A stretch of 64,000 bases of DNA. It comes from an uncultured Patescibacteria group bacterium. GTDB lineage: Bacteria; Patescibacteriota; Microgenomatia; UBA1400; PJMF01. The notes under the pieces were generated by a model. It did no database searches, was not told the DNA's origin, and worked only from the letters and a program-made list of their open reading frames with translations. Both the position numbers and the translations under genes were made by a program. Below are positions 822 through 36,275 of the stretch, in pieces (the stretch's first letter is position 1; each line of letters opens with the position of its first letter). Location: assembly GCA_905478415.1 (NCBI GenBank), contig CAJQIG010000001.1, forward strand, positions 8,818-72,817. Reading direction: 5' to 3'.

Positions 822-1020
822 CAAAAGCTTGTATTAACGCTGGTTCAATGTTGAACTGAGGGTATGCAAAACTCTCGAGAAAAAAAACGATGTGAGCCCA
901 TTGTCCCTCAGTTGGAACACCTCTTCAAGAGCATTTTACATACATACTCCAGACTAAAAGAGCTTGGATTTACCTATTTTGATGGAACCGTGAGTATAAT
1001 TGAAACGGAAGGAGATTCTC

Positions 1021-8598: not shown

Positions 8599-8620
8599 TA
8601 CGTATTCCTTTTCTAATCAA

Positions 8621-8962
8621 TTACATTCCAGATCCAAATGCAGTGGTTGCGACTTGGCTTACCATATTTGAAATAACAAACGCACCAAGTACTAAAGTAA
8701 GTCCGACTGCGGAGTACAGAATAGTTTTTTTGGATTTTTCTAATGCTTCTGGATTTCCTGAGCTCGTAATGTAACCGACACCACCCCAGACGATGAAGCC
8801 TGCTGCTATAAAGCCAGACAAGGTGACCATGATCTGAATCACTTCTTGGATAAAAGATTGAATTTGTCCCACTTCAGCCGACTGAGCAAAGACTGGATTA
8901 GCCACGACTAAGGAAGTAAGAAATATGCTTTGGAGAACTATGAGTTTTTTCATAAACACCAC
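8621..8962 (-). CDS. VirB2/TrbC-like pilin
   Basis: 113 aa, signal peptide ending VFAQS, two hydrophobic helices, conserved SSGNPEALEKSKK motif as in T4SS pilins of Gram-positive/minimal systems. Confidence 0.5.
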   Translation of the reverse strand: MVFMKKLIVLQSIFLTSLVVANPVFAQSAEVGQIQSFIQEVIQIMVTLSGFIAAGFIVWGGVGYITSSGNPEALEKSKKTILYSAVGLTLVLGAFVISNMVSQVATTAFGSGM

Positions 8963-10794: not shown

Positions 10795-12039
10795 ATGAAC
10801 AATAATTTCAACATAAAACCCTTATTTCCTCAGCTAAGATTTCCAGAATTCAAAGACCCTTGGCAAAAAAAACAACTTAGCGAAGTTGGAACTGTAGTTT
10901 CAGGTCTGACATACAAACCTTCTGATGTGGTAGATGATGGTATTTTAGTATTAAGGTCTTCAAATATCAGGAAGGCTAAACTTTCTTTCAAAGATAATGT
11001 TTATGTTAATCCCAAAACTGTTTCGTTTAATGCAGTAATGGAAAGCGATATACTAATTTGCGTTCGTAATGGCAGCAAGAGATTAATAGGGAAAAATGCT
11101 TTAGTCGATAAAAATGCTGAAGGATCAGCATTTGGGGCTTTTATGAGCGTATTTAGAAGTGAATCAAATAAATTTATCTTCCAACTTTTTAATTCAGATA
11201 CTTATAAGAAACAAGTTCACAGAAATTTAGGTGCAACCATTAACTCTATTAACGGCAGTGATTTAAAAAAATTCACTTTCGGTTTTCCATCAAAAGATGA
11301 GCAGGAAAAAATTGCTTCATTCCTCGCTTCTGTAGATAATTGGATTGAAAATTTAGAGAAGCAAAAAAACTCGCTTGAGGAATATAAAAAAGGAATTATG
11401 CAAAAAATCTTTTCTCAAGAGATAAGATTTAAGGATAAAAATGGGTGTGAGTACCCTGAATGGAAAAAAATCAAGCTTAGAAAGCTGTCAAAAGTAATTA
11501 CTAAGGGTACAACACCAACTAGTTTAGGTTTTTCATACCTAAAAGAAGGTGTTAATTTCATTAAGGCAGAAAACATTAATCAATACTCAGAAATTTCTAT
11601 TTCAGAAACAATGAAGGTCTCGTCTGAATGTAATCAAGCTTTAAGTAGATCATCTTTGGAAGAAAATGACATTCTATTTTCAATTGCAGGTACTTTGGGT
11701 CGTACGGCGATAGTGAAAAAAAAGGACCTTCCAGCTAACACCAATCAGGCTTTAGCAGTTATTAGATTGAATAGCACTGTAGATGTTTTCTTCATAGAAA
11801 AATTTTTAAATTCTCAAATGATTGAAAAATATATTTTACAAATGCTTTCAGTAGGTGCTCAACCAAATCTATCATTAAAACAAGTTGGAAATATTGAAGT
11901 CAACTTACCATCAATAAAAGAGCAAATGCAAATTGCTTCATTTCTATTTTCAATTGAGAATTTAGTCGAATCAAAAAGCAAGCAAATTACAAAAGCAAAA
12001 GAGTGGAAAAAAGGACTGTTACAACAAATGTTTGTATAG
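10795..12039 (+). CDS. hsdS: type I restriction-modification system, specificity subunit
   Basis: Two target-recognition domains separated by a conserved central helix (LEEYKKGIMQKIF) and a C-terminal repeat (AKEWKKGLLQQMF). ATG directly follows the hsdM stop. Confidence 0.85.
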   Translation: MNNNFNIKPLFPQLRFPEFKDPWQKKQLSEVGTVVSGLTYKPSDVVDDGILVLRSSNIRKAKLSFKDNVYVNPKTVSFNAVMESDILICVRNGSKRLIGKNALVDKNAEGSAFGAFMSVFRSESNKFIFQLFNSDTYKKQVHRNLGATINSINGSDLKKFTFGFPSKDEQEKIASFLASVDNWIENLEKQKNSLEEYKKGIMQKIFSQEIRFKDKNGCEYPEWKKIKLRKLSKVITKGTTPTSLGFSYLKEGVNFIKAENINQYSEISISETMKVSSECNQALSRSSLEENDILFSIAGTLGRTAIVKKKDLPANTNQALAVIRLNSTVDVFFIEKFLNSQMIEKYILQMLSVGAQPNLSLKQVGNIEVNLPSIKEQMQIASFLFSIENLVESKSKQITKAKEWKKGLLQQMFV

Positions 12040-12048
12040 ATAAAAGAT

Positions 12049-14844: not shown

Positions 14845-14857
14845 TAAGGGAAAAAGA

Positions 14858-17116
14858 ATGTATATATCAAGGGTTTACATAAGGAACTATCGCAATTTTG
14901 AAGAGTTTGATTTATTTATTCCTGATGGAAGTCCTTTAACCATTATCGGTGGAAATAATTGTGGAAAAACTAATTTTCTCCAAGCCATCAGGCTTGTTTT
15001 AGATTCTGGCATAGCTCCTTGGGACAAAAGACTTACAGAAGAAGATTTTTGTTGGAGTATAGGTGAAGAACCTTGGAAAAGCGGCGAGCAAATTGTTATC
15101 ACAGTAACTTTTAGCAATGTTACTGATAAAGAGGAAATACAATCACTATTGCACTCAATTGCTCCTGTGTATGACGAGGAGAGTGTTTTGTCTTCTAAAT
15201 CTGCAGATAGTCTGGAAGCTAATATTTCATTTGTGTTTGCACCATCTACCTTGAACAAGGAAGGCGACTATGACCTGATCGAGGACTACATTAGTTTTCT
15301 AGTTGCTGGTCGGTATCATCCTTCTGGATATTATTACCTACCAGACGGTAGTACTAAGGAATATGGTGATACGGTTATTTCTGGCTTATATTCTTGTCCT
15401 AGTAAAGAGGAGTTCTACAAGTATTTTTATTTGTCAGAAGACAATATTAAAAAACTCGAGGATGATTCGTCAGCCACATTTGAAAAGCAACTTGCTAAAC
15501 AGTCGTATCCTAACAAGGTGCGAAAACACATTAATTTACTTGCTCTAGATGCTCTTAGGGATGTCAAAAACGACTTTTACTTCGGTTATCGTTCTTTAGT
15601 GTCACAACTAATCAGAGGCGGCATAAAAAATAGTAAAAAAAACCAGATATCCAAAGAGGTGTCTGCTGCTTTTAAGAACCTTAGAACAAGCGGAGCTATT
15701 CCTGAAGCTAACACCATTCTGGATGATATAGAAACAAGACTACAGAACAAAGACATAAATCTTTTGTCAGATAAAGCAGACTTAATTATTGGTACTCCCA
15801 GAGTCACTCTTGAGAATATCGGTCGCTATTTCAATTTCCTAGTTAATCTTAAGGAAGATTTGAAAAGCGACCAGGACATGGAGACCATTGGTCTTGGTTA
15901 TCAGAACCTTGCGTATATTTCTGCCATTTTTGCCCTTTTTGAACTGAAGAAGGAACTTTCTTTAAATGATACCGATGAGAAAATTCGTATTGTATATAAT
16001 CTGCTACTGATCGAAGAACCAGAAGCACATCTGGATGTTCAAAATCAAAAGTATCTTCATACTCAAATCGAAAACAAGACGCAGAAATTGATGGAAGTGA
16101 AAGCGGCCGATGATGATGAAACTGAGGGTGAAGATGCTCCACAGTTTTTTGCATTTACTCAAGTAATTCAAACTTCTCACTCAACTCACTTAGCTTCCAA
16201 ATCTGACTTAAAAAATCTTGTTGTATTACAAAAAGGTGTCAATCAAGCAAGAGCTATAAACATTGATAGTGTATTACGACTTGATGATGACACATACAGC
16301 CACAATAGGAGAATATTAAAACAGTATCTTGATGCTACAAGGTCTTCATTACTCTTTGCAAGAAAAGTAGTTTTAGTTGAAGGACTCTCTGAAAAATATT
16401 CAGTAGGTACCCTTATTAACACGCATTTAAAGCAACAACGTCCTGAGAGCAATGTTGACATCGATAGCGAAGGAATTGAGGTTGTTGAGGTGGGTGGAAA
16501 GATCTTTGAGCCATTTAATGCCCTTTTTCAGAATGACCAATCTATTGGGCTTAACAACAAATGCTTGAATCTCCGAGATGGAGATTCTCATTTAGAGTCT
16601 CAAGTAGTCGCTGATTATGAGACAAAATACAACGACCTTAATCCTTCCTCTACTACCACACCTCAGCTGGATACTAAAAAAAACATTTACACCTTTGAAA
16701 TCGACTGTTTTTTCTTACCAATACCAGAAGATATAACTAGAAATAATATTGAGTATCTCAAGCTTATTTTGTATAGGTTTATGAAGGATGGAGACTACTT
16801 CAAAACAGATGACACTTTTACAAGGAAACTAGCTGCGATTGATAGCTTTGCCCAAGAGATTGTTAATCATGGAGTAGACAAGGACAAGTTTGAGAAGTTT
16901 TTCACAGATATTCTAGGCCATGAAGTCTCTAAGCCTTCCATATCTTTATATCTGTCCTCTTTGCTGAAAGCTAAATTGCTCGAAGACGTTACTGAAATTG
17001 AAACTTGGGGTGACACTCCGGACACAGAAGTTGGCATTACACCTTTTAGTGACCTGTCTGAGTTCATCATGCCCAAGTACATCAAAGATGGAATCTCATG
17101 GCTAATTACAGACTAA
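14858..17116 (+). CDS. OLD-family ATPase-Toprim nuclease, GajA-like (Gabija / class 2 OLD)
   Basis: Walker A TIIGGNNCGKTN, D-loop LLLIEEPEAHLD, Toprim ARKVVLVEGLSEKY. ATG at 14858 with an AAGGGA RBS 13 nt after the hsdR stop; the track ORF uses a TTG at 14834. The stop overlaps the UvrD-like gene by 19 nt. Confidence 0.7.
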   Translation: MYISRVYIRNYRNFEEFDLFIPDGSPLTIIGGNNCGKTNFLQAIRLVLDSGIAPWDKRLTEEDFCWSIGEEPWKSGEQIVITVTFSNVTDKEEIQSLLHSIAPVYDEESVLSSKSADSLEANISFVFAPSTLNKEGDYDLIEDYISFLVAGRYHPSGYYYLPDGSTKEYGDTVISGLYSCPSKEEFYKYFYLSEDNIKKLEDDSSATFEKQLAKQSYPNKVRKHINLLALDALRDVKNDFYFGYRSLVSQLIRGGIKNSKKNQISKEVSAAFKNLRTSGAIPEANTILDDIETRLQNKDINLLSDKADLIIGTPRVTLENIGRYFNFLVNLKEDLKSDQDMETIGLGYQNLAYISAIFALFELKKELSLNDTDEKIRIVYNLLLIEEPEAHLDVQNQKYLHTQIENKTQKLMEVKAADDDETEGEDAPQFFAFTQVIQTSHSTHLASKSDLKNLVVLQKGVNQARAINIDSVLRLDDDTYSHNRRILKQYLDATRSSLLFARKVVLVEGLSEKYSVGTLINTHLKQQRPESNVDIDSEGIEVVEVGGKIFEPFNALFQNDQSIGLNNKCLNLRDGDSHLESQVVADYETKYNDLNPSSTTTPQLDTKKNIYTFEIDCFFLPIPEDITRNNIEYLKLILYRFMKDGDYFKTDDTFTRKLAAIDSFAQEIVNHGVDKDKFEKFFTDILGHEVSKPSISLYLSSLLKAKLLEDVTEIETWGDTPDTEVGITPFSDLSEFIMPKYIKDGISWLITD

Positions 17117-19041
17117 AACTAGGAACAGATTTTGACCTATCACCGAAACAGATAGAGATAGTAGAGCGCAATAAAGATACTTTAGTTCGTGCACTCCCAG
17201 GTAGTGGTAAAACGACTATCTTAACTCTCAAAATAAAAAACCTATTACTAGATAATCCTCAGCTAAATAAATTATGCTGCATATCTTATACCAATGTAAA
17301 TGTAGAAGACCTGGAATCTAGTTGTTCACTTATTCTAGACAGTGAGCAAATAAAAAAAATTGATTTCTTAACATTCCATAGTTTTTGCTTACAGTACATT
17401 TTGACTCCATTTTCTTATCTTTACAGGAGCAGCAAGGGACTTAGACCGTATAAAAAAATCTTTAACTTCGGCGAGCATGGATCAGATCTCATTGATTACT
17501 TAAGTGACAAAGGTGTTGAAACAGCTGAGATTCAAAAAATTATTGATACTGAAAAGATTTATTACAATTTCAAGTTTATAAATAACTCCTGGAAAATAAC
17601 CAGCAATACCCATAAGGCATCTACCGTCAGTAAATACCTCAACTTTTTAAATTCCGAAAGACTCATAGACTTTAACTTGATCAGCCTTTTATCTCTATTC
17701 ATAGTTCAACAGAACCCTGTTGTTCGGCGCGTTTTAAATAAGTCCATTGATTGGATGTTTATTGATGAGTTCCAAGATGTTTCAGAGATACAATGCAAAA
17801 TAATTGAAGCTCTTAGTAAGAGTCGCATGAAGAATAACTCAGAGACGAAGTGGTTTATGGTTGGAGATCCAAATCAGTCAATTTATGGCTTTGCCGGAGC
17901 AAACCCTAGAAGTATGTACGATATGCGTAACTTCTTTAAAATGTTACACGATGGCGAAGAGTGTGAAATTAAGCTCGATAAAAGCCACCGTTGTTCTGAT
18001 GAGGTTTTTGAATTCGCTAAAAAGAATTACAACTCTGTTTTGCGTAAAGTCAAAAATTCACAACTGGTTCAACAGTTGCCAGGAGAGGATATTGTCGGGT
18101 ATTTAGAGGATATGGAGATTGCAGACGACTTGCAAGGAAACGGTGGTGACGGAAAAGTAATTATTAAAACTACCATTTCAGCCGTGAGTGAGATTGTAAA
18201 CTTAAAGTTTAATGAGTTACTAGATCAGGAAGTCTGTTGTATTGGTATCAATCGTTTTAATTCTATCGATGTTTATAAGCAATATATGCTTCATGACAAC
18301 ACCGATGAAGGAGACGGCTTTAGCCTCTACGCCGAACTTTATAAAGATTACGAAGAGAGATATGGGTTCAAATACTTTTCACTTTTTGTTAGATACTTAA
18401 TCTTAAAACACCATTTTTACAACAACAGACTCAAGTATCAGAAGTCACTTGAGAAATTTATTTACTCTTTGGGCTTGCTTCTCTCGGATAAATTAAATGT
18501 TGAAATGCAGCCACAAGTACTATCAAGTATTACTGTTGATGCCATCGAAATAACTTCACCACTGGCCCCGACAAGCACTGTCTTTGATGAGTTTATTGGC
18601 TTTACTGGTCGATTAGTTACAAGCTTGAATAGTAATTTGGAGTTTACTGATGGAGAGGAAGCTATCTTTAGCACAATCTCAGAAGCTGACAGGATAACCA
18701 ATATCAATGGTGTTACTGAGCCAACGCTCGCTAACTTCATCGCCTACATTACTCGATCAACTCCTGAGAAGCTAACTTTTGAAATAAAGCATATTCATAA
18801 GATTAAGGGCTTGGAATATGAACAGGTTATTGTTCAAAGAATTGAAGATCTTCCTCATAAGTCAAACTACGGAGTACATTTTGCTATCTTTGGAACAAGG
18901 TCGTTTCAGGCAAATGCTGGTCAAATCTATGACTACGTCCAGGAACTCAATAAGCTCTATGTCATGTTAACAAGACCAAGAAAGAATCTTTATATTATAA
19001 AAAATCAATATAAGCAAAGTCATTTTTTGGCTGCTCAATAA
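17098..19041 (+). CDS. UvrD/Rep-family helicase, GajB-like partner of the OLD/GajA-like nuclease
   Basis: Walker A ALPGSGKTTIL, motif II IDEFQDVSEIQ, C-terminal UvrD_C-like region; translationally coupled to the upstream OLD-family gene. Confidence 0.7.
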   Translation: MANYRLKLGTDFDLSPKQIEIVERNKDTLVRALPGSGKTTILTLKIKNLLLDNPQLNKLCCISYTNVNVEDLESSCSLILDSEQIKKIDFLTFHSFCLQYILTPFSYLYRSSKGLRPYKKIFNFGEHGSDLIDYLSDKGVETAEIQKIIDTEKIYYNFKFINNSWKITSNTHKASTVSKYLNFLNSERLIDFNLISLLSLFIVQQNPVVRRVLNKSIDWMFIDEFQDVSEIQCKIIEALSKSRMKNNSETKWFMVGDPNQSIYGFAGANPRSMYDMRNFFKMLHDGEECEIKLDKSHRCSDEVFEFAKKNYNSVLRKVKNSQLVQQLPGEDIVGYLEDMEIADDLQGNGGDGKVIIKTTISAVSEIVNLKFNELLDQEVCCIGINRFNSIDVYKQYMLHDNTDEGDGFSLYAELYKDYEERYGFKYFSLFVRYLILKHHFYNNRLKYQKSLEKFIYSLGLLLSDKLNVEMQPQVLSSITVDAIEITSPLAPTSTVFDEFIGFTGRLVTSLNSNLEFTDGEEAIFSTISEADRITNINGVTEPTLANFIAYITRSTPEKLTFEIKHIHKIKGLEYEQVIVQRIEDLPHKSNYGVHFAIFGTRSFQANAGQIYDYVQELNKLYVMLTRPRKNLYIIKNQYKQSHFLAAQ

Positions 19042-19066
19042 ATATTAAGTAATAAACAATCTATAT

Positions 19067-20578
19067 ATGCAAATTTCTAAATCCGACTACATGCTCTTTC
19101 TTCGCCATCCTGCATGGTTGTGGCTAAAGAAGTATGACAAAAATAAATTACCTCCAGTTGATGACAATACGCAAGCCATGTTTGATGCAGGTCATGACTT
19201 TGAACAATATGCTGAAAGCCTATTTCCCAATGGGGTTCGACTTGGGTTCAATAACTATGATGAGTACTTGAGTTTACCTGCTCGGACTCAGCAAGCTTTA
19301 CAACAAGGCGCAGAAGTTATTTTTCAGGGAAGGTTTGAAGTTGATAGCTTAACTTGTATAACTGACGTATTGTTCAAGCATCCTGATGGCACTTTTGATC
19401 TAATTGAGATCAAAGCCAGCACCAAAGCTAAGCCAGAATATGAATATGATCTTGCTTTTCAACTCTTGGTATTAGAAAAAGCAGGTCTAAAGATCCGCAA
19501 TGTAGCTGTGATGCATGCAAACAAAGAATATGTGCGTGAGGGGGAAATTGATCCTGCTGGTTTGGTTGAAAAAACAGATATTACAGATAAAGTTCGCACC
19601 TTGATGAGCTCTACACTTTTACAAGTAGATATGGCTCTTGAAGTTTTGGCAAATAAAACTATGCCAGATGTTTCACCAAGATATATCAATCAACTTGGTA
19701 TTCCAAACAAATCATCACAATGGCTTGAAGAATGGATGGAGATTTTCAAAAACATCAAAGGTGAATATGACACCTATTCCATTTACAACCTTGCCTATCC
19801 AAGCCCTGAGCAACTTGGGAAACTAGAAGATCTTGGTATTTCTTCAATTCACGATATGACGGAAGACCAAGCTTTAAGAGATAAACAAAGGGTGCAGATT
19901 AGAACCACGAAAACTGGTCAACGAATTATTGATAAAGATAAGATTAAAGCTTTCTTGGATACATTCCAGTATCCACTTTACTTCTTTGATTACGAAACAC
20001 TCTCAACAGTAGTTCCTCAATTTGATGGTTATAGTCCATACAAGGATTATCCATTCCAATACTCATTACATGTAATTGAAAGCTCAGGTGCAGAAGTAAA
20101 ACACTTGGAGTATTTGCACAACCAAGCCAGTGATCCAATGCCAGGATTACTAGCTCAGCTTAAGCAAGATATTGGCGATTCTGGTACTGTGATTGCCTGG
20201 AACATGAGTTATGAAAAAGGTTGTAATGATCGAATGGCTGAGTTGTTTCCAGAATATGCAGATTTCCTGGCAGACCTTAATGATCGTATAGATGATTTGA
20301 TGACCCCTTTTGCCAAGATGTGGTTTTTTGACAAAGATTTCTTTGGCAGTGCCTCGGTCAAGAAAGTTATGCCCGTTTTAGCACCTGAGTTAAGCTACAA
20401 AGAGCTCAATGTTTCTGATGGCTTACTAGCTCGCAGAATGTGGACACAAACCGTTTTGGAAGGAAAAAACAGAGAAAGACGACCAATGATTTTGGATGAT
20501 TTAAGTCGTTACTGTACACTTGATACTTTTGCGATGGTGAGGATATTGGAGGAGTTAAGAAAGATTGTTACTACCTAG
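19067..20578 (+). CDS. RecB/Cas4-like PD-(D/E)xK nuclease fused to a DnaQ-like DEDDy 3'-5' exonuclease (DUF2779-like architecture)
   Basis: PD-(D/E)xK element FDLIEIKAST in the N-terminal half. C-terminal half has Exo I YFFDYETLS, Exo II-like VIAWNMSYE and Exo III YCTLDT (YxxxD). Confidence 0.5.
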   Translation: MQISKSDYMLFLRHPAWLWLKKYDKNKLPPVDDNTQAMFDAGHDFEQYAESLFPNGVRLGFNNYDEYLSLPARTQQALQQGAEVIFQGRFEVDSLTCITDVLFKHPDGTFDLIEIKASTKAKPEYEYDLAFQLLVLEKAGLKIRNVAVMHANKEYVREGEIDPAGLVEKTDITDKVRTLMSSTLLQVDMALEVLANKTMPDVSPRYINQLGIPNKSSQWLEEWMEIFKNIKGEYDTYSIYNLAYPSPEQLGKLEDLGISSIHDMTEDQALRDKQRVQIRTTKTGQRIIDKDKIKAFLDTFQYPLYFFDYETLSTVVPQFDGYSPYKDYPFQYSLHVIESSGAEVKHLEYLHNQASDPMPGLLAQLKQDIGDSGTVIAWNMSYEKGCNDRMAELFPEYADFLADLNDRIDDLMTPFAKMWFFDKDFFGSASVKKVMPVLAPELSYKELNVSDGLLARRMWTQTVLEGKNRERRPMILDDLSRYCTLDTFAMVRILEELRKIVTT

Positions 20579-20608
20579 TAAAAATGAAATGTAAGGTAAA
20601 ATTAAATT

Positions 20609-22858
20609 ATGGCTACATTATTTAAAGAGGTTAACTATAACTTATCAACACTGATTCAACAAATTGACTTAGGAATTATCGGATTACCCGACATTCAACG
20701 TCCTTTTGTATGGAAAGATACTAAAGTTAGAGATTTATTTGACTCTATGTATCGAGGGTATCCGGTTGGGTACTTCTTATTTTGGGCAAATGGTTATCAG
20801 GAAAATACTAAAACAATCGGTGATCAAAATAAACAAAAAGCAGCCCAGCTTCTTATTGTCGATGGACAGCAACGATTAACCTCACTTTTTGCTGTAATGA
20901 AGAGTAAAAGCATTATTCGTGAAAATTATGAAACAGAAAACATCGTTATTTCATTCAAGCCTCTTGAGGAGAAGTTTGAAATACCTGATGCTGCCACAAA
21001 AAGAAGTCCTGAATACATTCAAAATATATCTGAACTTTGGAGTCCAGATATTAACATCTTTTCATTCACTCAGAATTTTATCGAGAAACTACAACAAACT
21101 CGAGAACTATCTGGTCAGGAAATAAATCAAATTCAAGAATCAATCAGCAGACTAAAAAATTTGGAGCATTATCCATTTTCAGTTCTTGAACTATCAGCTG
21201 CTATTGATGAAGAACAAGTTGCTGATGTTTTTGTGAGAATTAATAGTCAAGGTAAAAAACTTAACACAACAGATTTTATCTTGACATTAATGTCTGTTTT
21301 CTGGGAGGAAGGAAGAAAAGATTTAGAAAACTTCTGTGCAAGCGCACGGCAACCAAACACAAGCGAAGCATCTGCATTCAATTACTTGATTACTCCAGAT
21401 CCAGAGCAAATGTTGAGAGTGAGCGTCGGTTTTGGTTTTAGAAGAGCAAGAATGAAGTATGTCTATAGTATCTTGAGGGGTAAAGATTTAGAAACTGAGG
21501 AATTTTCTGAAGAACGAAGAGATCAACAGTTTGAAAAATTAAAAAATGCTCAAGCAAAAGTCTTAAGTCTAACTAACTGGCATGAGTTCCTCAAAGCATT
21601 GCAAAGAGCAGGTTATGTACGCTCTGACTACATTAGTTCACAAGTAAATGTTCTTTATGTATACGCAATGTATTTAATTGGTAAGTATGATTTTGAGGTT
21701 CCACTGTTTGAACTGAGAGAAATAATTGCTAGATGGTTTTATATGACCTCACTTACAGGACGATATACTGGATCACCAGAATCTCAGATGGAGGCGGACT
21801 TGGCAAACTTAAGAGATATTTCTACAGCTGAAGAATTTGTTTCACTTCTGGATAAAATAATTGCAACTCAATTTACGAGTGACTTCTGGCAGATAAATCT
21901 TCCAAATGATTTAGCTACTAGTTCTTCAAGAAGTCCCTCTCTTTTTGCTTACTATGCTGCGCTAAATGTGTTGGATGCAAAGGGTTTGTTTTCTCAACTT
22001 AAGGTTTCAGATTTGCTTCATGCCGGATTGAAGTCAAATAAATCAGCACTAGAGAAGCATCATCTTTTCCCAAAAAATTACTTGGTGAACATAGGTATTG
22101 AAGATCAACGTGTTCGTAATCAAATTGCTAACTTTGCCTTAGTTGAATGGAGTGACAATATTAAGATTTCAGATAGTTCCCCGCAAGAGTATATGGAGAT
22201 CATGAAAGAACGATTCGATCATGATGAACTTCGTGAAATGTATTATTGGCACGCATTACCCGATGACTGGCAAAACATGAATTATGATGAATTTCTGGAG
22301 GTGAGAAGGCAAAAAATAGCAGATGTTATCCAAACTGGATATAACAAACTATCTAGCATAGATCCAGAGGTAGATGCTGAAATTACGTCAATAGATCAAT
22401 TAATTCAAGGTGGTGAGTCAGAAAATATCGAGTTTAAATCCACTATGCGCGTTAATCTCTATACAAATGCAAAAGATCAAAAAATTGAAATGGCTTTTCT
22501 AAAAACAATTGCAGCTTTTCTGAATACTAATGGAGGAGTACTTGTTGTCGGAGTAAATGATGATGGAGAGTCATTAGGCTTGGATCCTGATGGTTTTGAA
22601 AACAGTGATAAATTTTATCTACACGCTGTGAATCTTATTAGAGACAAAATGGGTTCAGAGAATGCTTTGTATATTCATCCTCAGTTTGAAGATTATGTGG
22701 GAAAGCAGATTTTCGTAGTTAAATGCAAACCTGCACTAAAACCTGTATATGTAAAAGACCAAGGTCAAGAAAAATTCTATGCAAGAACAGGAAATAGTAC
22801 TACTGAATTGAATGGTCGAGAGTTAGAGGACTATATTAATCTGAGGTTTAGAAGGTAG
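20609..22858 (+). CDS. GmrSD-type modification-dependent (type IV) restriction protein: DUF262 + DUF1524 with a C-terminal AlbA_2/Schlafen-like domain
   Basis: DUF262 DGQQRLTS motif at about residue 90; C-terminal HNH-like DUF1524 region (HHLFPKNYL...N...EW); terminal about 150 aa (SENIEFKSTMRVNLYT...GGVLVVGVNDDG) resemble the AlbA_2 putative DNA-binding domain. Confidence 0.7.
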   Translation: MATLFKEVNYNLSTLIQQIDLGIIGLPDIQRPFVWKDTKVRDLFDSMYRGYPVGYFLFWANGYQENTKTIGDQNKQKAAQLLIVDGQQRLTSLFAVMKSKSIIRENYETENIVISFKPLEEKFEIPDAATKRSPEYIQNISELWSPDINIFSFTQNFIEKLQQTRELSGQEINQIQESISRLKNLEHYPFSVLELSAAIDEEQVADVFVRINSQGKKLNTTDFILTLMSVFWEEGRKDLENFCASARQPNTSEASAFNYLITPDPEQMLRVSVGFGFRRARMKYVYSILRGKDLETEEFSEERRDQQFEKLKNAQAKVLSLTNWHEFLKALQRAGYVRSDYISSQVNVLYVYAMYLIGKYDFEVPLFELREIIARWFYMTSLTGRYTGSPESQMEADLANLRDISTAEEFVSLLDKIIATQFTSDFWQINLPNDLATSSSRSPSLFAYYAALNVLDAKGLFSQLKVSDLLHAGLKSNKSALEKHHLFPKNYLVNIGIEDQRVRNQIANFALVEWSDNIKISDSSPQEYMEIMKERFDHDELREMYYWHALPDDWQNMNYDEFLEVRRQKIADVIQTGYNKLSSIDPEVDAEITSIDQLIQGGESENIEFKSTMRVNLYTNAKDQKIEMAFLKTIAAFLNTNGGVLVVGVNDDGESLGLDPDGFENSDKFYLHAVNLIRDKMGSENALYIHPQFEDYVGKQIFVVKCKPALKPVYVKDQGQEKFYARTGNSTTELNGRELEDYINLRFRR

Positions 22859-28626: not shown

Positions 28627-29412
28627 ATGAAACTATCACCAAAAGCACAGGCAAGCATTAACAAGGTAATAGAGAAATTTCAAACTGGAGACTTATCAGC
28701 TGTGACAAGAATAGCTCGTATTCAAGTTGCTAGTGATGCTCCAGTTAATAAGTGGAGCTTATCAAATAAAGTGCTAGCATTTTTACAATCTGATGAGCTA
28801 GATTGCCGGGGTTATAAACAGTGGCAGAAAGAAGGTAGAACGGTCAAAAAAGGCAGTAAGGCAGTTTATATACTCAGACCTAAGCTCGCTAAGATCGAGC
28901 AGGAAAACGAAGGGGAAACAAAAAATATTTGTGTTGGTTTTGCTCCTATTCCAGTATTTGCAGCTTCATGTACTGAGGGTGACGAAGTGTTACCAACCTA
29001 CGAGCCAGTAGAATATCCGCCATTACTAGACGTGGCTAAAAAATTTGGTATAGCTGTTGAGTATGCACCTATTAGCCCAGACAAACTTGGTGATTGTCAA
29101 ACTGATGGTAGCAAAATCAGACTTGGTACACACGATGCAGGAGTATTTTTTCATGAATTAGCCCATGCGATACACGCGCGAATAGATGGAGAGCTAAAGC
29201 AAGGACAAAACAAGACACAAGAAACAGTAGCCGAGTTTACATCTGCAGTATTGATGGACTTGTACGGCATGGGAGATTCTAGCGGGAAAGCTTGGAGCTA
29301 TATTAGCCACTATTCAGATGATCCACTCATTGCCATAACTAAGGCGATGGGAACAGTTGAAAAAGTGCTGGCGGTATTACTCGCTGATGAGGTGCCAAGT
29401 GTTGGCAGTTAA
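28627..29412 (+). CDS. ArdC-like antirestriction/ssDNA-binding protein with C-terminal HExxH zincin-like metallopeptidase motif
   Basis: N-terminal ArdC_N-like pattern (KW...N...YKQWQKEGRTVKKGSKAVYI vs the canonical F.QW...G..V+KGEK); C-terminal FHELAHAIH (HExxH). Confidence 0.55.
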   Translation: MKLSPKAQASINKVIEKFQTGDLSAVTRIARIQVASDAPVNKWSLSNKVLAFLQSDELDCRGYKQWQKEGRTVKKGSKAVYILRPKLAKIEQENEGETKNICVGFAPIPVFAASCTEGDEVLPTYEPVEYPPLLDVAKKFGIAVEYAPISPDKLGDCQTDGSKIRLGTHDAGVFFHELAHAIHARIDGELKQGQNKTQETVAEFTSAVLMDLYGMGDSSGKAWSYISHYSDDPLIAITKAMGTVEKVLAVLLADEVPSVGS

Positions 29413-30144
29413 GCCAGCTTCTTGTATCTCTGACTTCAGACTTAGGAAAAATTGTAAGTCTGAAGTCTCCTCCTCCAAAACTTGAGCAATATGTTTGGTG
29501 AGGAAGTTGTAGATATTTTGATTTGGAGAGATAAATAAAAGTGATGGATTTTCATGTAACGTCCTATTTTGCCAGGTTCCTTCGTCAAAGTACTCAATGT
29601 ATTGAGAGATTTTCTTTCGTAGCATAAAGCGTGGGGTACCTTCGTCGATGATTTCTAAAAAATAACGCTTTGTTAAGTCTTTGTCTTTCAGGGAAATATA
29701 CGCATCAGGTCGGTTATATGGCAGGTAGTAGTGTACTGCTAAATCGGTTTTGGTATAAAAATGAAGATCGTGTTTGTTTTTAAGGGATTGCTCTTTGAGC
29801 AATAAATAAACATCGGCTAGAAAGAGACTGTGATTGATTAGTTTTTGAGAAGCATTTTTATCTCGGTAGGCTCTACGCAATATCTTTTCGTTTGTATTTT
29901 CTTGCTTAAGAAGAATCTTTCTTGATTTAGTAGCTAGGTAGTATATCGCTGGTCTGGTATTCTCTTTGAGTCTAGTTGAGTAGATTCTACCGAGGATATT
30001 TTTTTCTGTGTGGTCTTTAAGCCATGAGTTTATTCGTTTGGGATCTTTGTGATTAAGTAATGTTTGAATTTGATGTCGATTAAGGAAACGGAAGCGATAT
30101 ATGAGAGTGAGGATTTCGAGTTGTTTAGGAGTTATGGTATCCAT
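29377..30144 (-). CDS. replication-relaxation family protein (winged-helix relaxation protein of conjugative elements)
   Basis: N-terminus ITPKQLEILTLIYRFRFLNRHQIQTLL matches the LTPRQLDILRLLYRFRFLT..HL signature of the replication-relaxation family. Confidence 0.55.
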   Translation of the reverse strand: MDTITPKQLEILTLIYRFRFLNRHQIQTLLNHKDPKRINSWLKDHTEKNILGRIYSTRLKENTRPAIYYLATKSRKILLKQENTNEKILRRAYRDKNASQKLINHSLFLADVYLLLKEQSLKNKHDLHFYTKTDLAVHYYLPYNRPDAYISLKDKDLTKRYFLEIIDEGTPRFMLRKKISQYIEYFDEGTWQNRTLHENPSLLFISPNQNIYNFLTKHIAQVLEEETSDLQFFLSLKSEIQEAGLTANTWHLISE

Positions 30145-30991: not shown

Positions 30992-31657
30992 ATGAATATA
31001 ACAATAAAAGAAGGCGTTGATGGCGCTAGAAATGCTAAGGGTATTGCAGTAATAATTGACGTTTTGAGAGCAGCAACTGTTGCATCATATTTGCTTGATA
31101 AAGGTGTGACTTCAATTCATCCTGTTGCAACCCCAGAAGAGGCTTTTGACTTTAAGATGAAGGATGAAGAAGTGTTGCTTGTTGGTGAAAATAAGGGAAT
31201 TAAGATTGATGGTTTTGATATCGGTAATTCTCCATCAGTTATAAAAACACTTAATAATTTGGATGGAAAAAAGGTTGTTCATAGAAGTTCAACTGGCACA
31301 CAAGGCTTAGTTAATTCTACAAATGCAAATCAAATAATATTTGGGTCATTCGTTTCTGCTCAAGCAATTTTGGATTTTTTAAAAGCCAGCCAATCTGAAG
31401 ATATTACATTCGTCCCAATGTATGCTTTAGAAGATCAACTTTTTGCTGAGTACATGGTAAGTAAATTAAAAGGTGAGACACATTCTTCTCTCGAGGAAGT
31501 GAAAGCAAAGCTTGAACAGCATGAATGGATATTGAATAGCTTTCTTAATCCTCAAAATGATAATTTTCCCGAGGATGACTTTCACTTGGCACTAGAGGTT
31601 GATACATTCAATTTCTTTCCAATAATCAAAGATGGAAAAATTGTTAAAAGCAACTAA
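30992..31657 (+). CDS. 2-phosphosulfolactate phosphatase (ComB) family protein
   Basis: VIIDVLRAATVAS and VGENKG.KIDGFDIGNSP motifs of the ComB family. Confidence 0.55.
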   Translation: MNITIKEGVDGARNAKGIAVIIDVLRAATVASYLLDKGVTSIHPVATPEEAFDFKMKDEEVLLVGENKGIKIDGFDIGNSPSVIKTLNNLDGKKVVHRSSTGTQGLVNSTNANQIIFGSFVSAQAILDFLKASQSEDITFVPMYALEDQLFAEYMVSKLKGETHSSLEEVKAKLEQHEWILNSFLNPQNDNFPEDDFHLALEVDTFNFFPIIKDGKIVKSN

Positions 31658-34287
31658 GGCAAAGTCGAAAAAGCCTGTGTTTTAGATTTGGGTTTACTTA
31701 CCTTCTTATATCTACGAAAAACTTGTGTTGTTGCTGACGGCTCGTATTTCATGGCAAAGTGCTTTCTAGAATTCTCAATCACCTCATTCACTCTTCCTTT
31801 GTTTTCCCTAATTTCAACAGGCATAGTAATCCCAGAAAAAGGCTCTTCAGGGTTTAAAGCACCTAGTCTCATAAAGAATCTGTATGACGGTAATCCAGCA
31901 ATATCACCTTGTTCAACATACGGTCTGAATTGAGGCAAAATAAGTGTTTCATCCTCAGGATTAGCTGTTCTAAAGCAAATAACGGTTCCAGTATTTGCCA
32001 GGGTTACGTTGACCAGTGATTTGTCTTCAAGCTGTGAAGTAGTCTGATGGGCTAAGATTGCCCCAAGCTTGTATTTACGAGCCTCTGAGAGTATCTGAGC
32101 AAAAGCAGGGGTGGCAAAGTTTTGAAATTCATCAACATACAAATAGAAGTCTTTTCTATCTTTCTCAGCCATTCGTGCACGCCTCAATGAAGCCAATTGG
32201 AGCTTTGCCATAACCACCACGCCAAACACTTTTGAGTTATCTTCTCCAAGTTTTCCTTTGGATAAATTACAAAGTAAGATCTTGCCTGCATTCATGATTT
32301 CTTCAAAATTAATAGTAGATTTTTCTTGCTCTAGGATTCGTTTGGCAGTTGGTGAAAACAAAAAGCGTCCAATTTTGTTAGTAATTGGCGATATCATTTT
32401 TACTTTCTGATAATCACCAGCTTTGGCAAACTCATACTTCCAAAAGTCTTTGAGGTTTTCATCTGTTAGTTGTTTAACTACTGATTTTCTAAACTTGGTG
32501 TTTATCAGTAACTTATAGACTGTAAATAGTGTTGCTCCTGGAACAGTAAAAGCTGTGTGAATAGTGTTTCTGAGTATATACTCCATTCTTGGCCCAGAAT
32601 ATTTTTCAGTATAGATTTTGTGAAATAGAGAAATAATACTTTCGGCAATGTACTCTTTTTCTCTAGTGGCATCTTCTTCACTCAAACCATCAGAAAGTTC
32701 AAGCAAGTTAATGCCCATTGGGTATTCAATATCATCAGGGTTAAAGTACACCACATCTTCTAATCGTTCTTCTGGAATTACATGTAAGATTTGTTCAATC
32801 AAATCTCCATGAGGATCAACGACTGCCAATCCTTTGCCATTTTGAATATCGGAGTTGATCATGCTCAAAAGCATGGTGGATTTACCCGTACCAGTAGCTC
32901 CCAGGATATACATATGTCTTCTACGCTCGTTTTCAGTTAAACCAATCAAAGTTCTAGAGTTACCATAGGTATTTTGTGCAAAGACCACATCAAGTTTATT
33001 GCCTTTTTTGAGAGACAGCGGTGCAGGTAATTCTTTACTAAACTGTTTCTGCATATCTTCAGTTTTTGTCGTCTTGGTGAATGGGAAGTGATATAAATCT
33101 CCAAGTTCAGATGAAGATAAAATAGTGCTGTTAAAAGGGAGTGATAGCCTATGCCTGAACAAAAAGCTCTTGAAAGCATTAAGCTGTTTAATTGGAAGTT
33201 TAAGGCTTTGAGTAAGATGTTGATATTGAGTACCACTCATTGATTTCAGTGTTGAAACAAAACCTTTTGATTTTTTATTAGCCAAATATTCATTAGATGA
33301 TTGAGACAACACTCTAATTGAGGTTTTATATAGCGGTTGATCAATTTTCTTCTTTACCAGTTTTTCAATTTCACTCTGGTAAGCATTGCTTGCTTTCTTG
33401 CCTTTTAGAATTCTAGGCAGTGGCAGCAGTGGCCCATCTCTACCATCTGTGGCTAGGAACACCAGTAAGCCAAGTGGTAGAAGCAAGATTTGTAGTGCGT
33501 AAGAAATAGTTAGATACAACCAAGCACCTGAGTGTGCATGGGCAATTTCAGCAGTTAAGTCTTGTTTGCTTTTGATGAGTTTTTGCAGTCGTTTAACTTC
33601 TGGCAATTTAGATTTAGAAACAGGACTAATAACAACTTGATATGCAAGTAGCTCACTATCCTTAAGTTTGGTCATTGCTCCAGTTAAGTACGCAATTGGA
33701 TCGTTTTTATCTAGGCTTTCATGAGCTTTGAGGGGAAAGGCAAAGTGTTTGGCAAGTTTTAATTGAGTAGTAAAACTATTTCTTTCCTGTAGATATTCAC
33801 TGGTTTTGTTGATCTGAATACCTGGGAGATATGATAGTAAGCTGTTTTTAATCAGACCTGATAGTGATTGAGGTGCTCGAATTACATAGCGAATACCATC
33901 AGCTTTAGTGGAAACAATTTCTAAACTAACGCTTTTTGTAACTCTAAATATTCTCTCAACAAAAGACTTTTGATTGGTAATGCTGTGAAAGAGATTAAAG
34001 AGTTGTTCTGTTGAGTATGGGTTAAGTTCAGTTTTCTTGAGTGGCTTAATTTCTAAATACACATGTTTTGCAGTTTGTTGTTTAAACAGCAAAATCAGTC
34101 TGATGACCTGAAAAACCAGAAAGAGTGAAACAAATAAGAGGAAAAAAGCTAAAAGGGAAAAATAAAGAACAGACCAGTTGATTGATGGAATTATTGTGGC
34201 AGGAAAATATGAGAGTATTTGGTTTAAATCAATAGCCATGCCCTTCTTTTCTCTGGGCAGACAATGTTGTGTTGGAGTATACCCCAA
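31654..34287 (-). CDS. virD4: type IV coupling protein (VirD4/TraD/TraG family) with N-terminal TM segments
   Basis: Walker A YILGATGTGKSTML, Walker B YLYVDEFQNF, N-terminal hydrophobic helices, 877 aa. Confidence 0.8.
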   Translation of the reverse strand: MGYTPTQHCLPREKKGMAIDLNQILSYFPATIIPSINWSVLYFSLLAFFLLFVSLFLVFQVIRLILLFKQQTAKHVYLEIKPLKKTELNPYSTEQLFNLFHSITNQKSFVERIFRVTKSVSLEIVSTKADGIRYVIRAPQSLSGLIKNSLLSYLPGIQINKTSEYLQERNSFTTQLKLAKHFAFPLKAHESLDKNDPIAYLTGAMTKLKDSELLAYQVVISPVSKSKLPEVKRLQKLIKSKQDLTAEIAHAHSGAWLYLTISYALQILLLPLGLLVFLATDGRDGPLLPLPRILKGKKASNAYQSEIEKLVKKKIDQPLYKTSIRVLSQSSNEYLANKKSKGFVSTLKSMSGTQYQHLTQSLKLPIKQLNAFKSFLFRHRLSLPFNSTILSSSELGDLYHFPFTKTTKTEDMQKQFSKELPAPLSLKKGNKLDVVFAQNTYGNSRTLIGLTENERRRHMYILGATGTGKSTMLLSMINSDIQNGKGLAVVDPHGDLIEQILHVIPEERLEDVVYFNPDDIEYPMGINLLELSDGLSEEDATREKEYIAESIISLFHKIYTEKYSGPRMEYILRNTIHTAFTVPGATLFTVYKLLINTKFRKSVVKQLTDENLKDFWKYEFAKAGDYQKVKMISPITNKIGRFLFSPTAKRILEQEKSTINFEEIMNAGKILLCNLSKGKLGEDNSKVFGVVVMAKLQLASLRRARMAEKDRKDFYLYVDEFQNFATPAFAQILSEARKYKLGAILAHQTTSQLEDKSLVNVTLANTGTVICFRTANPEDETLILPQFRPYVEQGDIAGLPSYRFFMRLGALNPEEPFSGITMPVEIRENKGRVNEVIENSRKHFAMKYEPSATTQVFRRYKKVSKPKSKTQAFSTLP

Positions 34288-34517
34288 CCTCTGGTTTTTG
34301 GCAATAAATTACTGTTGACATGGTGCTTAAAAATAGATAAACTATCACTATATTGATAATTTGTAAAGCATGGTATGACAGATAAAAAACAAGGTGACGA
34401 TCAAAAAAAGCAGGAAGACATCTTTACAAAAAGACTGGCGGCAATCTTGGTTAAACAGATTCAATCAGATATTCAAAAAGGTAAAACACCTCGATCTGAG
34501 CAGGTGAAAGGTCAGAC

Positions 34518-36245
34518 ATGACCAAAACACTTGCAAGTCAAAATGCTGTTGCTGCAATTAGAATTTCTTCAGTAAAACAAGGCTTACAAGGTGACTCTCC
34601 TGAGGATCAAAAACAACAAATAGAGCGTTTTGCTCTGGCTCGTGGGATTACCATCAAAAAATTCTTCATTTTTATGGAATCAGCTTCCAAAGAACAGCAA
34701 CCTGTTCAAGAAGCAATTGATTACTGTGCTAATTCAAACAACGACATTCAACTATTCATTATCAAATCTATTGATCGGTTTACTCGTGGAGGTTCATATC
34801 TCTACGACCATCTCAAACGCCAGCTAGTATCCAATAATGTACGGTTAATTGATATTTATGGCATCATTAGCAGCCAAGAAGTAAATACACTTGAGCATTT
34901 AGATGTTGAATATGACTGGAGTGTCTATAGTCCTACTAAGAAAGCGGAGATTTTAGAGGCTGAGAGGGCTAAAGATGAGATGCGAGACATTATGACTCGT
35001 ATGATTGGGGCAGAAATTCGCTATGTTCGCATGGGTTATCGAGTTCGCAGGGCTCCATATGGATATAAGAATAAAAAAGTTGATACTGAGCATGGGAAGC
35101 GTGTCATTTTGGTTCCATATGAGGAAGAGGCTCAGTGGATCAGAAAAATGTATGATCTTAGGCTCACTACTGCGTTGAATGATACTGAAATAGTTGAAAA
35201 ACTTAATGAGCTTGGATTTAAAACACGAACATTTAATCGAAGAGATCCTAACAACAAAACAAAAATCATTGGTAAGCGAGGCGGTAATCCACTTAATCTT
35301 AAGCAGTTATGGAGATTTATTAGAAATCCAATTTACGCTGGCATTAATGTTGAGAAATGGACACAAAGCAAACCGATTAAGGGTCAGTTTGAAGGCTTAA
35401 TCAGTGTTGCAGAGTTCAACAAAGCTAATAGGGGCAAAGTTGTAATTGTTGAGAAAAACGGTCAAATATCCATTGAAAAAGAAAAGCCTCCAACTCACTT
35501 AGCAAATAAGCAGGTACTTAATCCAAAGTTTCCTTTTAAAAAACATGTTCACTGTCCAAAATGCAATAAACCTTTATATGGTAGTGCTTCAAAAGGCAAG
35601 CTCGGTAAGTATTACCCTGCCTATCATTGTCATGCACGAGGCCACTATTTTAGAGTACCTAGTAAAGAGTTTATGGAAACTATTGAGACATTTGTGAAAG
35701 ATATTGAAGTTTCTCCAGAGTATATTGATAACCTAAAAAAGGAAGTTGTAAGACTTTGGAATAAGCAGCAGGAAACTATAGTTGAGGATAACACCCGAGT
35801 TGATAAGAAGATCGAGGATTTACGCTCTCAGGCACGCTCAATTGCTGAAAAGATTCGCTATCTTAATTCGGAAGTATCAATTAGATATATGGAAAAAGAT
35901 TTAATTGATATTGAGAATGAGATTCAAAAATTAGAAGATGCAAAAGAAAATCCTGTGGCAAAAGAAGACGTAAATATGGAAGTAGTTATGGAATACATTG
36001 GTTTTTATTTGGAACACCTAGAAGAATTATTGCTATATAGGGCTAAACCACTAAAAAGAGCTGAGTACTTTAGCCTACTTTTTGAGCAACCTCCAACCTA
36101 TGATGAATTGGCTTTTGGAACACCAAAATTAGTCCCATATGTCAAGAAAAAAGGGGGTAATAATACCCCCTCCTTCCCAATTGGTGACCCCACAGAGAAT
36201 CGAACTCTGCTCTACAGGATGAAAACCTGTTATCCTAACCGATAG
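34518..36245 (+). CDS. large serine recombinase (integrase of the island); its 3' end reads into tRNA-Glu
   Basis: N-terminal resolvase catalytic domain (AAIRISSVKQ active-site Ser region), recombinase domain, zinc-ribbon CPKCN...YHCH, coiled-coil C-terminal region. The last about 64 nt overlap the antisense of tRNA-Glu. Confidence 0.75.
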   Translation: MTKTLASQNAVAAIRISSVKQGLQGDSPEDQKQQIERFALARGITIKKFFIFMESASKEQQPVQEAIDYCANSNNDIQLFIIKSIDRFTRGGSYLYDHLKRQLVSNNVRLIDIYGIISSQEVNTLEHLDVEYDWSVYSPTKKAEILEAERAKDEMRDIMTRMIGAEIRYVRMGYRVRRAPYGYKNKKVDTEHGKRVILVPYEEEAQWIRKMYDLRLTTALNDTEIVEKLNELGFKTRTFNRRDPNNKTKIIGKRGGNPLNLKQLWRFIRNPIYAGINVEKWTQSKPIKGQFEGLISVAEFNKANRGKVVIVEKNGQISIEKEKPPTHLANKQVLNPKFPFKKHVHCPKCNKPLYGSASKGKLGKYYPAYHCHARGHYFRVPSKEFMETIETFVKDIEVSPEYIDNLKKEVVRLWNKQQETIVEDNTRVDKKIEDLRSQARSIAEKIRYLNSEVSIRYMEKDLIDIENEIQKLEDAKENPVAKEDVNMEVVMEYIGFYLEHLEELLLYRAKPLKRAEYFSLLFEQPPTYDELAFGTPKLVPYVKKKGGNNTPSFPIGDPTENRTLLYRMKTCYPNR

Positions 36246-36256
36246 ACGATGGGGCC
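36182..36256 (-). tRNA. tRNA-Glu (anticodon TTC), CCA encoded
   Basis: Reverse complement reads GGCCCCATCGTCTATCGGTTAGGATAACAGGTTTTCATCCTGTAGAGCAGAGTTCGATTCTCTGTGGGGTCACCA, a cloverleaf with 7-bp acceptor stem, TTC anticodon and TTCGATT T-loop. Confidence 0.8.
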
Positions 36257-36275
36257 ACGTTGGTAGCAGCGCTAC

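Follow-up and report, generated by a model that had tools for sequence, protein, structure and literature searches.

In the described systems, tyrosine integrases use tRNA genes as bacterial attachment sites (attB) with cores of 25-76 bp, whereas serine integrases use cores of 5-8 bp that lie inside open reading frames (ORFs) (PMC8092301). A minority of tycheposons carry a large serine recombinase (LSR), and the preprint that notes them gives no detail of their attachment (att) sites (10.1101/2020.12.28.424599), while the text of a large LSR catalogue does not mention tRNA (PMC10083194). For the Patescibacteria, a 2025 survey reported that most type IV secretion system (T4SS) clusters are without a relaxase and suggested a non-conjugative role for them; its text discusses neither recombinases nor tRNAs (PMC12102498). 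We found no description of tRNA-targeting serine recombinases in Patescibacteria in the literature. Here we analyze a stretch of 64,000 nucleotides from an uncultured Patescibacteria group bacterium (contig CAJQIG010000001.1 of GenBank assembly GCA_905478415.1, positions 8,818 to 72,817; hereafter the window), in which the gene of an LSR reads into a convergent tRNA-Glu(UUC) gene. We consider it likely that the window holds an integrative conjugative element (ICE) of ~36-37 kb, which its own LSR inserted at the extreme 3' end of this host tRNA gene (coordinates of the features are collected in Table 1).

The locus resembles more than one kind of described system. Compared with the large serine integrases of phages and ICEs (Bxb1, phiC31, A118/LI, TP901-1, SPbeta SprA, TnpX/TndX), the recombinase has the same domain order and the same catalytic Ser, Arg and Asp, its gene likewise lies beside attP, no long flanking repeats were found here either, and Foldseek matches run over the full length (E 1e-17 to 3e-12), although the identity is only 14-17%. 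Unlike the characterized serine integrases with their short cores inside ORFs (PMC8092301), members of the Patescibacteria family dock at tRNA 3' ends, apparently with more than one tRNA species as a target, and the P arm lies within the enzyme's own coding sequence, where it doubles as a predicted terminator. With the tRNA islands and ICEs of tyrosine integrases (P4-like, SXT-like, AICEs (actinomycete ICEs), tycheposons), the element shares the insertion at a tRNA 3' end, the preserved tRNA, the adjoining integrase, a tRNA hot spot with scars, and a cargo of defense and restriction-modification (R-M) genes; here, however, there is no tyrosine recombinase and the 25-76-bp direct repeats typical of those elements are absent, and no direct repeats of a tRNA 3' segment of ~20 bp or more were found flanking the island. 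The T4SS clusters of Patescibacteria that resemble the FATA class of mating-pair formation systems (PMC12102498) contain the same kinds of genes (VirB4, PrgI, pilins, coupling protein) and come from the same phylum-level group, but the survey reports most of those clusters to be without a relaxase, and in ~85-89% of the loci studied here a Replic_Relax protein and a tRNA-docking integrase accompany the coupling protein.

Overlap of the recombinase gene with tRNA-Glu and its recurrence in a family

ARAGORN located the tRNA-Glu(ttc) gene on the minus strand, convergent with the LSR ORF, and the Rfam model RF00005 matched the tRNA body with 54.8 bits (gathering score 29); the encoded CCA reads TGG on the plus strand. 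The two genes overlap by 64 nt (36182..36245), made up of 61 nt of tRNA body and the CCA, and the LSR stop codon, TAG (36243-36245), falls in the D-loop region of the tRNA. LSR residues 556-575, GDPTENRTLLYRMKTCYPNR, are a translation of the tRNA antisense strand. A preliminary description of this DNA, made from the sequence alone, had claimed that the LSR ORF reads 64 nt into a minus-strand tRNA-Glu and that the C-terminal tail is templated by tRNA-complementary sequence; ARAGORN, Rfam and the ORF list confirm the overlap, and the last 20 residues, which are antisense tRNA, bear out the origin of the tail.

A search of 5.8 billion proteins returned at least 1,769 relatives among 8,000 candidates scored, and the best 120 of these relatives are 57-81% identical to the LSR and nearly all ~575 aa long. 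We assembled 80 family loci from GTDB species representatives, 64 of which could be evaluated for an adjoining tRNA. In 54 of the 64, a convergent tRNA has its 3' end 57-67 nt past a conserved 'GT' codon, a reference point that sits in the C-terminal motif PTYxEL..GTPKL; no tRNA follows the LSR in 10 evaluable loci. Because a convergent tRNA recurs at the same spacing in homologous loci of other species, the overlap in the window is not a chance arrangement, and the recombinase-tRNA overlap is a trait of the family. The 54 targets are tRNAs for Glu (23), Gln (12), Lys (10), Arg (3), Ser (2), Val (2), Asp (1) and Asn (1), spanning 14 anticodon types, and in a neighbor-joining tree of the recombinases Glu and Lys targets alternate among close neighbors. 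The length of the overlap varies from 21 to 176 nt and is set by the first stop codon in the antisense frame of the tRNA, and the C-terminal tails of relatives resemble antisense-translated tRNA T-arms and acceptor stems (GDPTGNRTP..MRTRCPNR, GAPGGIRTPD, VTPRGFEPL). An encoded CCA was not clearly enriched at the recombinase-adjacent tRNAs (29/54 vs 14/37).

The island's LSR belongs to what is apparently a large and undescribed family of tRNA-end-docking serine integrases. Family records are labeled Shapiro-, Levy-, Roizman-, Davies- and Collierbacteria, WWE3, Microgenomates, Saccharimonadia and Parcubacteria. A scan of IMG/VR with the LSR alignment found no relatives, and the family is therefore not phage-borne there. 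Many of the contigs L014-L096 that carry the module are labeled uncultured Gammaproteobacteria/Pseudomonadales, Methylococcaceae, Micrarchaeota or Methanobacterium, which probably reflects mis-binning or mislabeling and not the true host range.

The 575-aa protein itself is a very divergent LSR, for which sequence support is weak and the fold match is full-length. Pfam detected Resolvase (PF00239; 2.4e-7, 31.4 bits, cut-off 23.3) and Recombinase (PF07508; 2.2e-8, 34.7 bits, cut-off 21.1), Zn_ribbon_recom (PF13408) scored 19.2 bits, under its cut-off of 25.3, and no PDB chain was matched by the LSR sequence alone or by a 39-sequence profile. In the alignment of 39 sequences, the catalytic residues R15, S17, Q21, D86 and R90 do not vary and R87 is kept in at least 90%, giving the motif D86-R87-x-x-R90; C346, C349 and C371, in a zinc ribbon at ~339-376, are likewise invariant, and the final conserved motif is PTYDELAFGTPKL. 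The AlphaFold model, with a predicted local distance difference test (pLDDT) score of 76, has long helices in the coiled-coil region (~400-477). In a Foldseek search, the top matches of this model, over ~575 columns, were the full-length serine integrases 9dxd, 9y66 and 9dxh (E ~1e-17, 16-17% identity), and Bxb1 (9iu2, 3e-12) and phiC31 (4bqq) were also matched. The protein has a resolvase-type catalytic domain with the nucleophilic Ser and Arg/Asp, followed by a recombinase domain and then a zinc ribbon with an embedded coiled coil.

Boundaries of the element

Relatives without the island retain the locus. In L103 (a 1.19-Mb contig) and L109, a terminator comes after ribosomal protein L19, YraN and tRNA-Glu(UUC), the genes beyond it are unrelated and include no LSR, and the synteny of CTP synthase, L19, YraN and tRNA-Glu is kept; in the window, YraN/UPF0102, L19, CTP synthase and DnaE lie to the right of the tRNA. 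To its left, T4SS genes, a coupling protein, a relaxase (by Pfam PF13814 only) and the integrase lie in one segment of at least 36 kb, as in an ICE, and the LSR is the sole recombinase found among the island ORFs of at least 100 aa.

The right end is delimited by related elements that adjoin different DNA. L040, which lies beside a tRNA-Lys, and L044, which has no tRNA, are ~92% identical over 5.3 kb up to ...AAATGGTG and unrelated past there, and L043, L049 (at a tRNA-Lys) and L055 are 76-90% identical up to ...TTTGGTGA and again unrelated past there. Homology among close elements is thus lost directly after TGGTG(A), which corresponds to the CCA, the discriminator and the first acceptor base pair, and therefore the tRNA body appears to be host DNA, with the element ending at the CCA/discriminator; the tRNA-Glu body would then constitute the B' arm of the right attachment site (attR). 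The smallest block of identity across the junctions is TGGTG (L040/L044), which argues for a terminal crossover if one mechanism applies family-wide, and we infer that the crossover lies within or next to TGGTG (36182-36186).

Some loci without a tRNA look like attP. L036, L044 and L105 have differing P arms but a conserved stretch of 30 nt immediately right of the junction (GGTGGGAYAGCRT....TGAACCNGAA), and a homologous helix-turn-helix (HTH) gene lies on the opposite strand 1.2-1.9 kb to the right. These flanks are best read as the other ends of the elements, so that the P-core-P' arrangement would derive from circular or tandem forms; the two ends of the L105 contig do not overlap and give no sign of circularity. 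A second class of right flank (L055, L107, L108) starts GTGACCCYA, like the tRNA-Glu 3' end, and has TTYGAACC ~24-28 nt in. Rfam gave no matches in 8 tRNA-less loci, whose right flanks are not known RNAs.

The last codons before the junction carry a putative intrinsic terminator for the tRNA. The tRNA strand from 36171 to 36146 reads GGGGGTATTATTACCCCC and then TTTTTT, with a minimum free energy of -22.6 kcal/mol (z = -6.3 vs shuffles); a terminator scan omitted this hairpin, and folding confirmed it. An equally strong hairpin in the same place, followed by TTTT(A), occurs in ~1/3 of the family, mostly in the members closest to the query, with a consensus outer stem of GGGACTAA paired with TTAGTCC and some double substitutions. 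The Leu codon in the T-run is CTA in 61/63 cases, and CTA makes up 15% of the Leu codons elsewhere in the same genes. From the conservation of the hairpin and the CTA bias, the last ~12 recombinase codons are under constraint at the DNA or RNA level.

For the left end (attL) there is only a tentative position, ~0.3-1 kb upstream of the window. The contig L097 adds 9.5 kb there, so that the stretch searched to the left of the tRNA totals 45.7 kb, and short-query BLAST of 36100-36300 against the window and L097 found no repeat or tRNA fragment of 12 nt or more in it; the best second copy of the junction has 9 exact nt (12/15) at L097 8803-8817. Near this match are three direct units of 67 nt, 67-75% identical to each other (L097 8558-8624, 8806-8872 and 9202-9268; window -957, -709 and -313), and a looser fourth copy lies within the window at 892. 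Unit 1 (u1), which starts TTGTGACCCCAAGGCTC, has GTGACCCCA in common with attR, an identity of only ~9-13 nt. With the 33-nt right flank of the L107 LSR as a sliding query along both strands of 73.5 kb, the two best matches were units 1 and 2 (22/33), and window 892 came third. The units may be attL or P' scars of successive insertions, or repeated promoter regions. The HTH and AAA_15 genes of the window resemble genes to the right of the attP-like junctions, and the left end is therefore expected in the same area as the units. On this placement, the predicted attP is the window sequence ...CCTTCCCAATTG|GTGACCCCA joined to AGGCTCAACAGTTTGAACC (L097 8818 on), or the equivalent at L097 8558, L097 9202 or window 892, and the predicted attB is ...TAGTATAACATTT of L097 joined to GTGACCCCACAGAGAATCGAAC.

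Other searches did not refine this placement. An upstream search for the 45-nt P arm in either orientation gave scores within the shuffled range, and exact 10-mer junction repeats in the 10 kb upstream of all loci gave one match, below chance expectation. A P' profile built from L036, L044 and L105 found no attL in any locus, probably as most elements exceed the 10-kb flank, and matches of a profile of the three 67-nt units were restricted to their own species. The left homology boundary common to L043 and L055 has no att-like core, and neither the window nor L097 contains homologs of the genes that follow tRNA-Glu in L103 and L109, so that synteny could not place the left end. Each of the upstream units starts with a GTGA(C/G)CC that resembles a tRNA 3' end and carries TTTGAACC ~24 nt in, and the 67-nt units end TATATAC. 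We also considered whether the T-loop-like GAAC motif of every P' arm is displaced outward by 5 bp relative to its place in tRNAs and rejected this; the displacement holds for the u1/L107/L055 class and not cleanly for L036/L044/L105.

Proposed origin of the junction and its alternatives

We propose that the right attachment arm (P) of the element is the last ~60 nt of the recombinase gene. Recombination of attP with attB would then set the recombinase gene against the tRNA, and the ORF would continue antisense to the first in-frame stop, in the D-loop. Strand exchange would most likely take place within TGGTG, which comprises the CCA, the discriminator and C72, leaving the tRNA body intact; the tRNA would be parted from its native terminator, for which the P arm may supply a substitute encoded in the C-terminal codons of the recombinase. 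The LSRs of the family probably read common features of tRNA 3' ends, namely the CCA/discriminator, the acceptor strand and the T-loop TCGAAC. The overlap, the fold and catalytic residues of the LSR, the tRNA association across the family, the homology breakpoints, the empty sites in relatives and the terminator hairpin are observed; the exact crossover dinucleotide, the bases read by the enzyme, where attL lies and the present ability of this copy to excise and transfer are inferred.

Several observations weigh against the proposal. The position of attL is unproven: the 15-mer match of u1 to attR has 3 mismatches, with 0.27 such matches expected by chance in 20 kb, and once the core is left out u1 is not significantly similar to other right flanks. 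The tandem of four P'-like sites near the left end has no explanation, and neither L103 nor L109 shares the synteny left of the island. A directionality factor was not identified. No excised circle or empty site was found in the species, in which 23/23 L19-bearing contigs carry the recombinase. The remaining objections concern the depth of the crossover. The LSR genes of L018 and L050 run up against an 18-nt piece of the tRNA-Glu 3' end that breaks off in the T-loop, with an intact tRNA-Glu 130-190 nt beyond, and in L109 a 160-nt insert at the same tRNA-Glu lies between two perfect copies of a 19-nt repeat, GATTCCCCGTGGGGTCACA, which extends from the T-loop to the tRNA-Glu 3' end. Such 18-19-nt fragments fit a longer core or a crossover in the T-loop at least as well as a terminal one, and they speak for an att core inside the 3' half of the tRNA, where the element's copy of the tRNA 3' end would replace the host's, in the manner of classical islands with tyrosine integrases, and the displaced fragment would mark attL. 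We nevertheless regard such a core as improbable for the window. L049, beside a perfect tRNA-Lys, and L043 and L055, beside non-tRNA DNA, have 90% identity in their final 1.3 kb and split after TGGTGA, L040 and L044 diverge likewise, Glu and Lys targets alternate in close relatives where the model would yield chimeric tRNAs, and the 45.7 kb upstream hold no tRNA 3' fragment of 12 nt or more. The structures in L018, L050 and L109 may represent mini-elements or scars in which the P' arm is a copy of the tRNA end, or may reflect a longer core in some members; the L109 insert has the appearance of a mini-element or of a scar left by integration at this site. As to their layout, L018 has one such 18-nt fragment after the recombinase (11670-11880) and L050 has two (2080-2300), each with a spacer and a terminator; L050 also has a repeated 48-nt terminator unit, and the coverage of its contig is very low. 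The repeats of L109, an island-free relative, are at 2853-2871 and 3032-3050, 179 nt apart, and its insert carries a terminator.

The preliminary description was thus right that there is an island and that the tail is templated, but it probably set the core too deep: attachment at the tRNA 3' end stands, whereas a core in the tRNA 3' half is not supported, as homology stops right after TGGTG(A) in both sets of related elements. Its view of the region left of the tRNA as an inserted mobile island is borne out by the T4SS, coupling-protein, Replic_Relax, R-M and defense genes and by the locus without a recombinase in L103 and L109, the island-free relatives for which it had called. The second partial copy of the tRNA-Glu 3' sequence that it expected upstream as attL was not found at 12 nt or more in the 45.7 kb searched, and the region is an insertion nevertheless; for a serine integrase the search for a second tRNA copy is weakly diagnostic. 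The island is one instance of a large LSR family.

Whether the element is still mobile is a separate matter. The region could be a fixed and decaying remnant, in which the insertion is old, excision has been lost and the juxtaposition is a fossil; we think this possible but rather unlikely. The same junctions are present on both sides in every contig of the species, from several samples, neither an attP nor an empty attB was recovered among 18-23 contigs of the species, and the left end has several scar-like sites; but the recombinase ORF is intact with all catalytic residues present, the ORFs of the T4SS, the coupling protein and Replic_Relax are intact, and a loss of present activity would be compatible with the proposed insertion by the element's own LSR as the origin of the junction. 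That the tRNA is cargo of the element and not its target is scarcely credible: a tRNA does accompany the recombinase across the family, but the same tRNA-Glu stands beside YraN-L19 in recombinase-free relatives, the homology of related elements stops at the tRNA 3' end, and the identity of the tRNA differs between close relatives.

The overlap might also be functional in itself, with the antisense tail, or a switch of tails, regulating the stability or directionality of the recombinase in the manner of the integration-dependent switches of mycobacteriophages, whose systems use C-terminal degradation tags (PMC8092301). Integration necessarily alters the C-terminus, the attP-like loci (L036, L039, L044, L055) end 3-19 residues past the junction in unrelated sequence, and stop codons before the junction are rare in the family. 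However, the length and sequence of the tail depend on the tRNA that was hit, P0009 and P0044 are among a few members without a tail, which stop before or at the junction, the tail is predicted to be disordered (pLDDT <50 for residues 547-564 and 571-575 in the AlphaFold model), and, by a rough estimate, ~ten stop-free codons are roughly what chance allows. We hold this explanation to be less probable still than a deep core; the tail is probably a by-product of read-through, although it is conceivable that an integration-dependent C-terminus is regulatory, and such a change could serve as a sensor of the integration state.

At least hundreds of LSRs that dock at tRNA ends break the usual rule by which tyrosine integrases take tRNA genes and serine integrases take ORFs (PMC8092301), and the family would offer compact, unidirectional integrases with a natural target common to many tRNA genes. 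The module of Replic_Relax, coupling protein, LSR and tRNA is a concrete alternative to the non-conjugative view of Patescibacteria T4SSs (PMC12102498). For annotation, it is to be expected that the recombinase genes of the family are routinely called as overlapping tRNA genes, and the overlap marks the island boundary to within a few bases. A bolder generalization, which we offer as speculative and doubtful as a whole, is that phylum-wide serine integrases evolved to read generic tRNA 3' ends and hop among Glu, Lys, Gln, Arg and other tRNAs, that the attP arm in their own codons is a replacement terminator, and that the module with the coupling protein and Replic_Relax is the missing integration and relaxase machinery, by which Patescibacteria T4SSs would prove to belong to genuine ICEs and integrative and mobilizable elements (IMEs).

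Gene content of the island and its surroundings

Leftward from the LSR, the island contains the genes of the coupling protein, 2-phosphosulfolactate phosphatase (ComB), a 212-aa protein, Replic_Relax and the ArdC-like protein, followed by NUDIX, sugar-modification and GNAT genes and a DUF2726 protein, and then by the GmrSD-like gene, DUF2779, Gabija GajA/GajB, type I R-M, the T4SS block, the AAA_15 ATPase and the HTH gene. No tyrosine-integrase family was found in a Pfam scan of nearly all island ORFs of at least 100 aa or in the precomputed Pfam results of the remainder. Among 46 loci with at least 6 kb upstream of the LSR, a coupling-protein homolog is present in 39 (on the strand opposite the LSR in 36 of them) and a Replic_Relax homolog in 41, always on the opposite strand. 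VirB4 lies within 10 kb of the LSR in only 5 loci, and therefore many members may be mobilizable and not self-transmissible. The PF13814 proteins may be relaxases that the 2025 survey of Patescibacteria T4SSs missed. The ArdC-N-like protein is 61-66% identical in at least 11 other loci, including L105, L020, L044, L017, L018, L040 and L072.

Table 1 Features of the window discussed in the text (coordinates are window positions).
Feature	Coordinates	Strand	Basis or remark
HTH gene	1744-1950		
AAA_15/AriA-like ATPase	1959-3749		
P'-arm- or tRNA-3'-end-like site GTGAGCCCATTGTCCCTCAGTTGGAACACCTCT	892..924	+	Third-best match to L107 right flank; looser fourth copy
T4SS block: M23 peptidase, VirB4-like ATPase, TraC-like, PrgI, two pilin-like proteins (TrbC/pilin)	3774..8962	-	Pfam
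Defense cargo as a whole	9217..22858	+	Pfam, PADLOC
Type I R-M hsdM, hsdS, hsdR	9217-14844	+	Pfam, PADLOC
Gabija (GajA 14834-17116, GajB 17098-19041)	14834-19041	+	Pfam, PADLOC
DUF2779/Cas4-like protein, between Gabija and GmrSD-like gene		+	Pfam, PADLOC
GmrSD-like protein (PADLOC HEC-05)	20609-22858	+	Pfam, PADLOC
ArdC-N-like protein	28627..29412	+	Pfam
Replic_Relax (PF13814) protein, candidate relaxase	29377..30144	-	Pfam, E = 1.5e-14
Type IV coupling protein (TrwB/VirD4-like), divergent from recombinase	31654..34287	-	Pfam
48-aa ORF, lysine- and glutamine-rich, stop overlapping recombinase start (ATGA)	34375..34521	+	Gene call in all contigs
LSR (integrase), 575 aa, ATG start	34518..36245	+	Pfam, invariant residues, AlphaFold, Foldseek
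Predicted intrinsic terminator for the tRNA, in P arm, within recombinase codons KKKGGNNTP; GGGGGTAttatTACCCCC then TTTTTT	36146..36171	-	Folding
Junction (putative attR core region) AATTGGTGACCCCA	36179..36192		Homology between related elements stops here
tRNA-Glu(UUC); body 36185-36256, encoded CCA 36182-36184	36182..36256	-	ARAGORN, Rfam
tRNA-antisense-encoded C-terminal tail (residues 556-575) and stop codon	36183..36245	+	Direct sequence reading; low pLDDT; tails vary among homologs
Host core genes YraN/UPF0102 and ribosomal protein L19	36276..36975	-	Pfam; syntenic in L103, L109

The 48-aa ORF directly upstream of the recombinase has no Pfam or PADLOC match and is a possible accessory or directionality factor; a counterpart is weakly conserved upstream of the recombinase in L017, L018, L020 and L021. 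At the corresponding place L105 has a small ORF of 55 aa and L107 one of 62 aa. The ComB gene (30992-31657) lies between Replic_Relax and the coupling protein and is not in that position in 46/46 other loci. The YraN/UPF0102 ORF (36276-36725, from the first GTG) overlaps L19 by ~100 nt and is absent from the source annotation; its true start is probably further downstream. L105 also carries a pair of genes for bAvd and a reverse transcriptase (780-2328), like those of diversity-generating retroelements, with homologs in L039, L066, L068, L076, L081 and L082.

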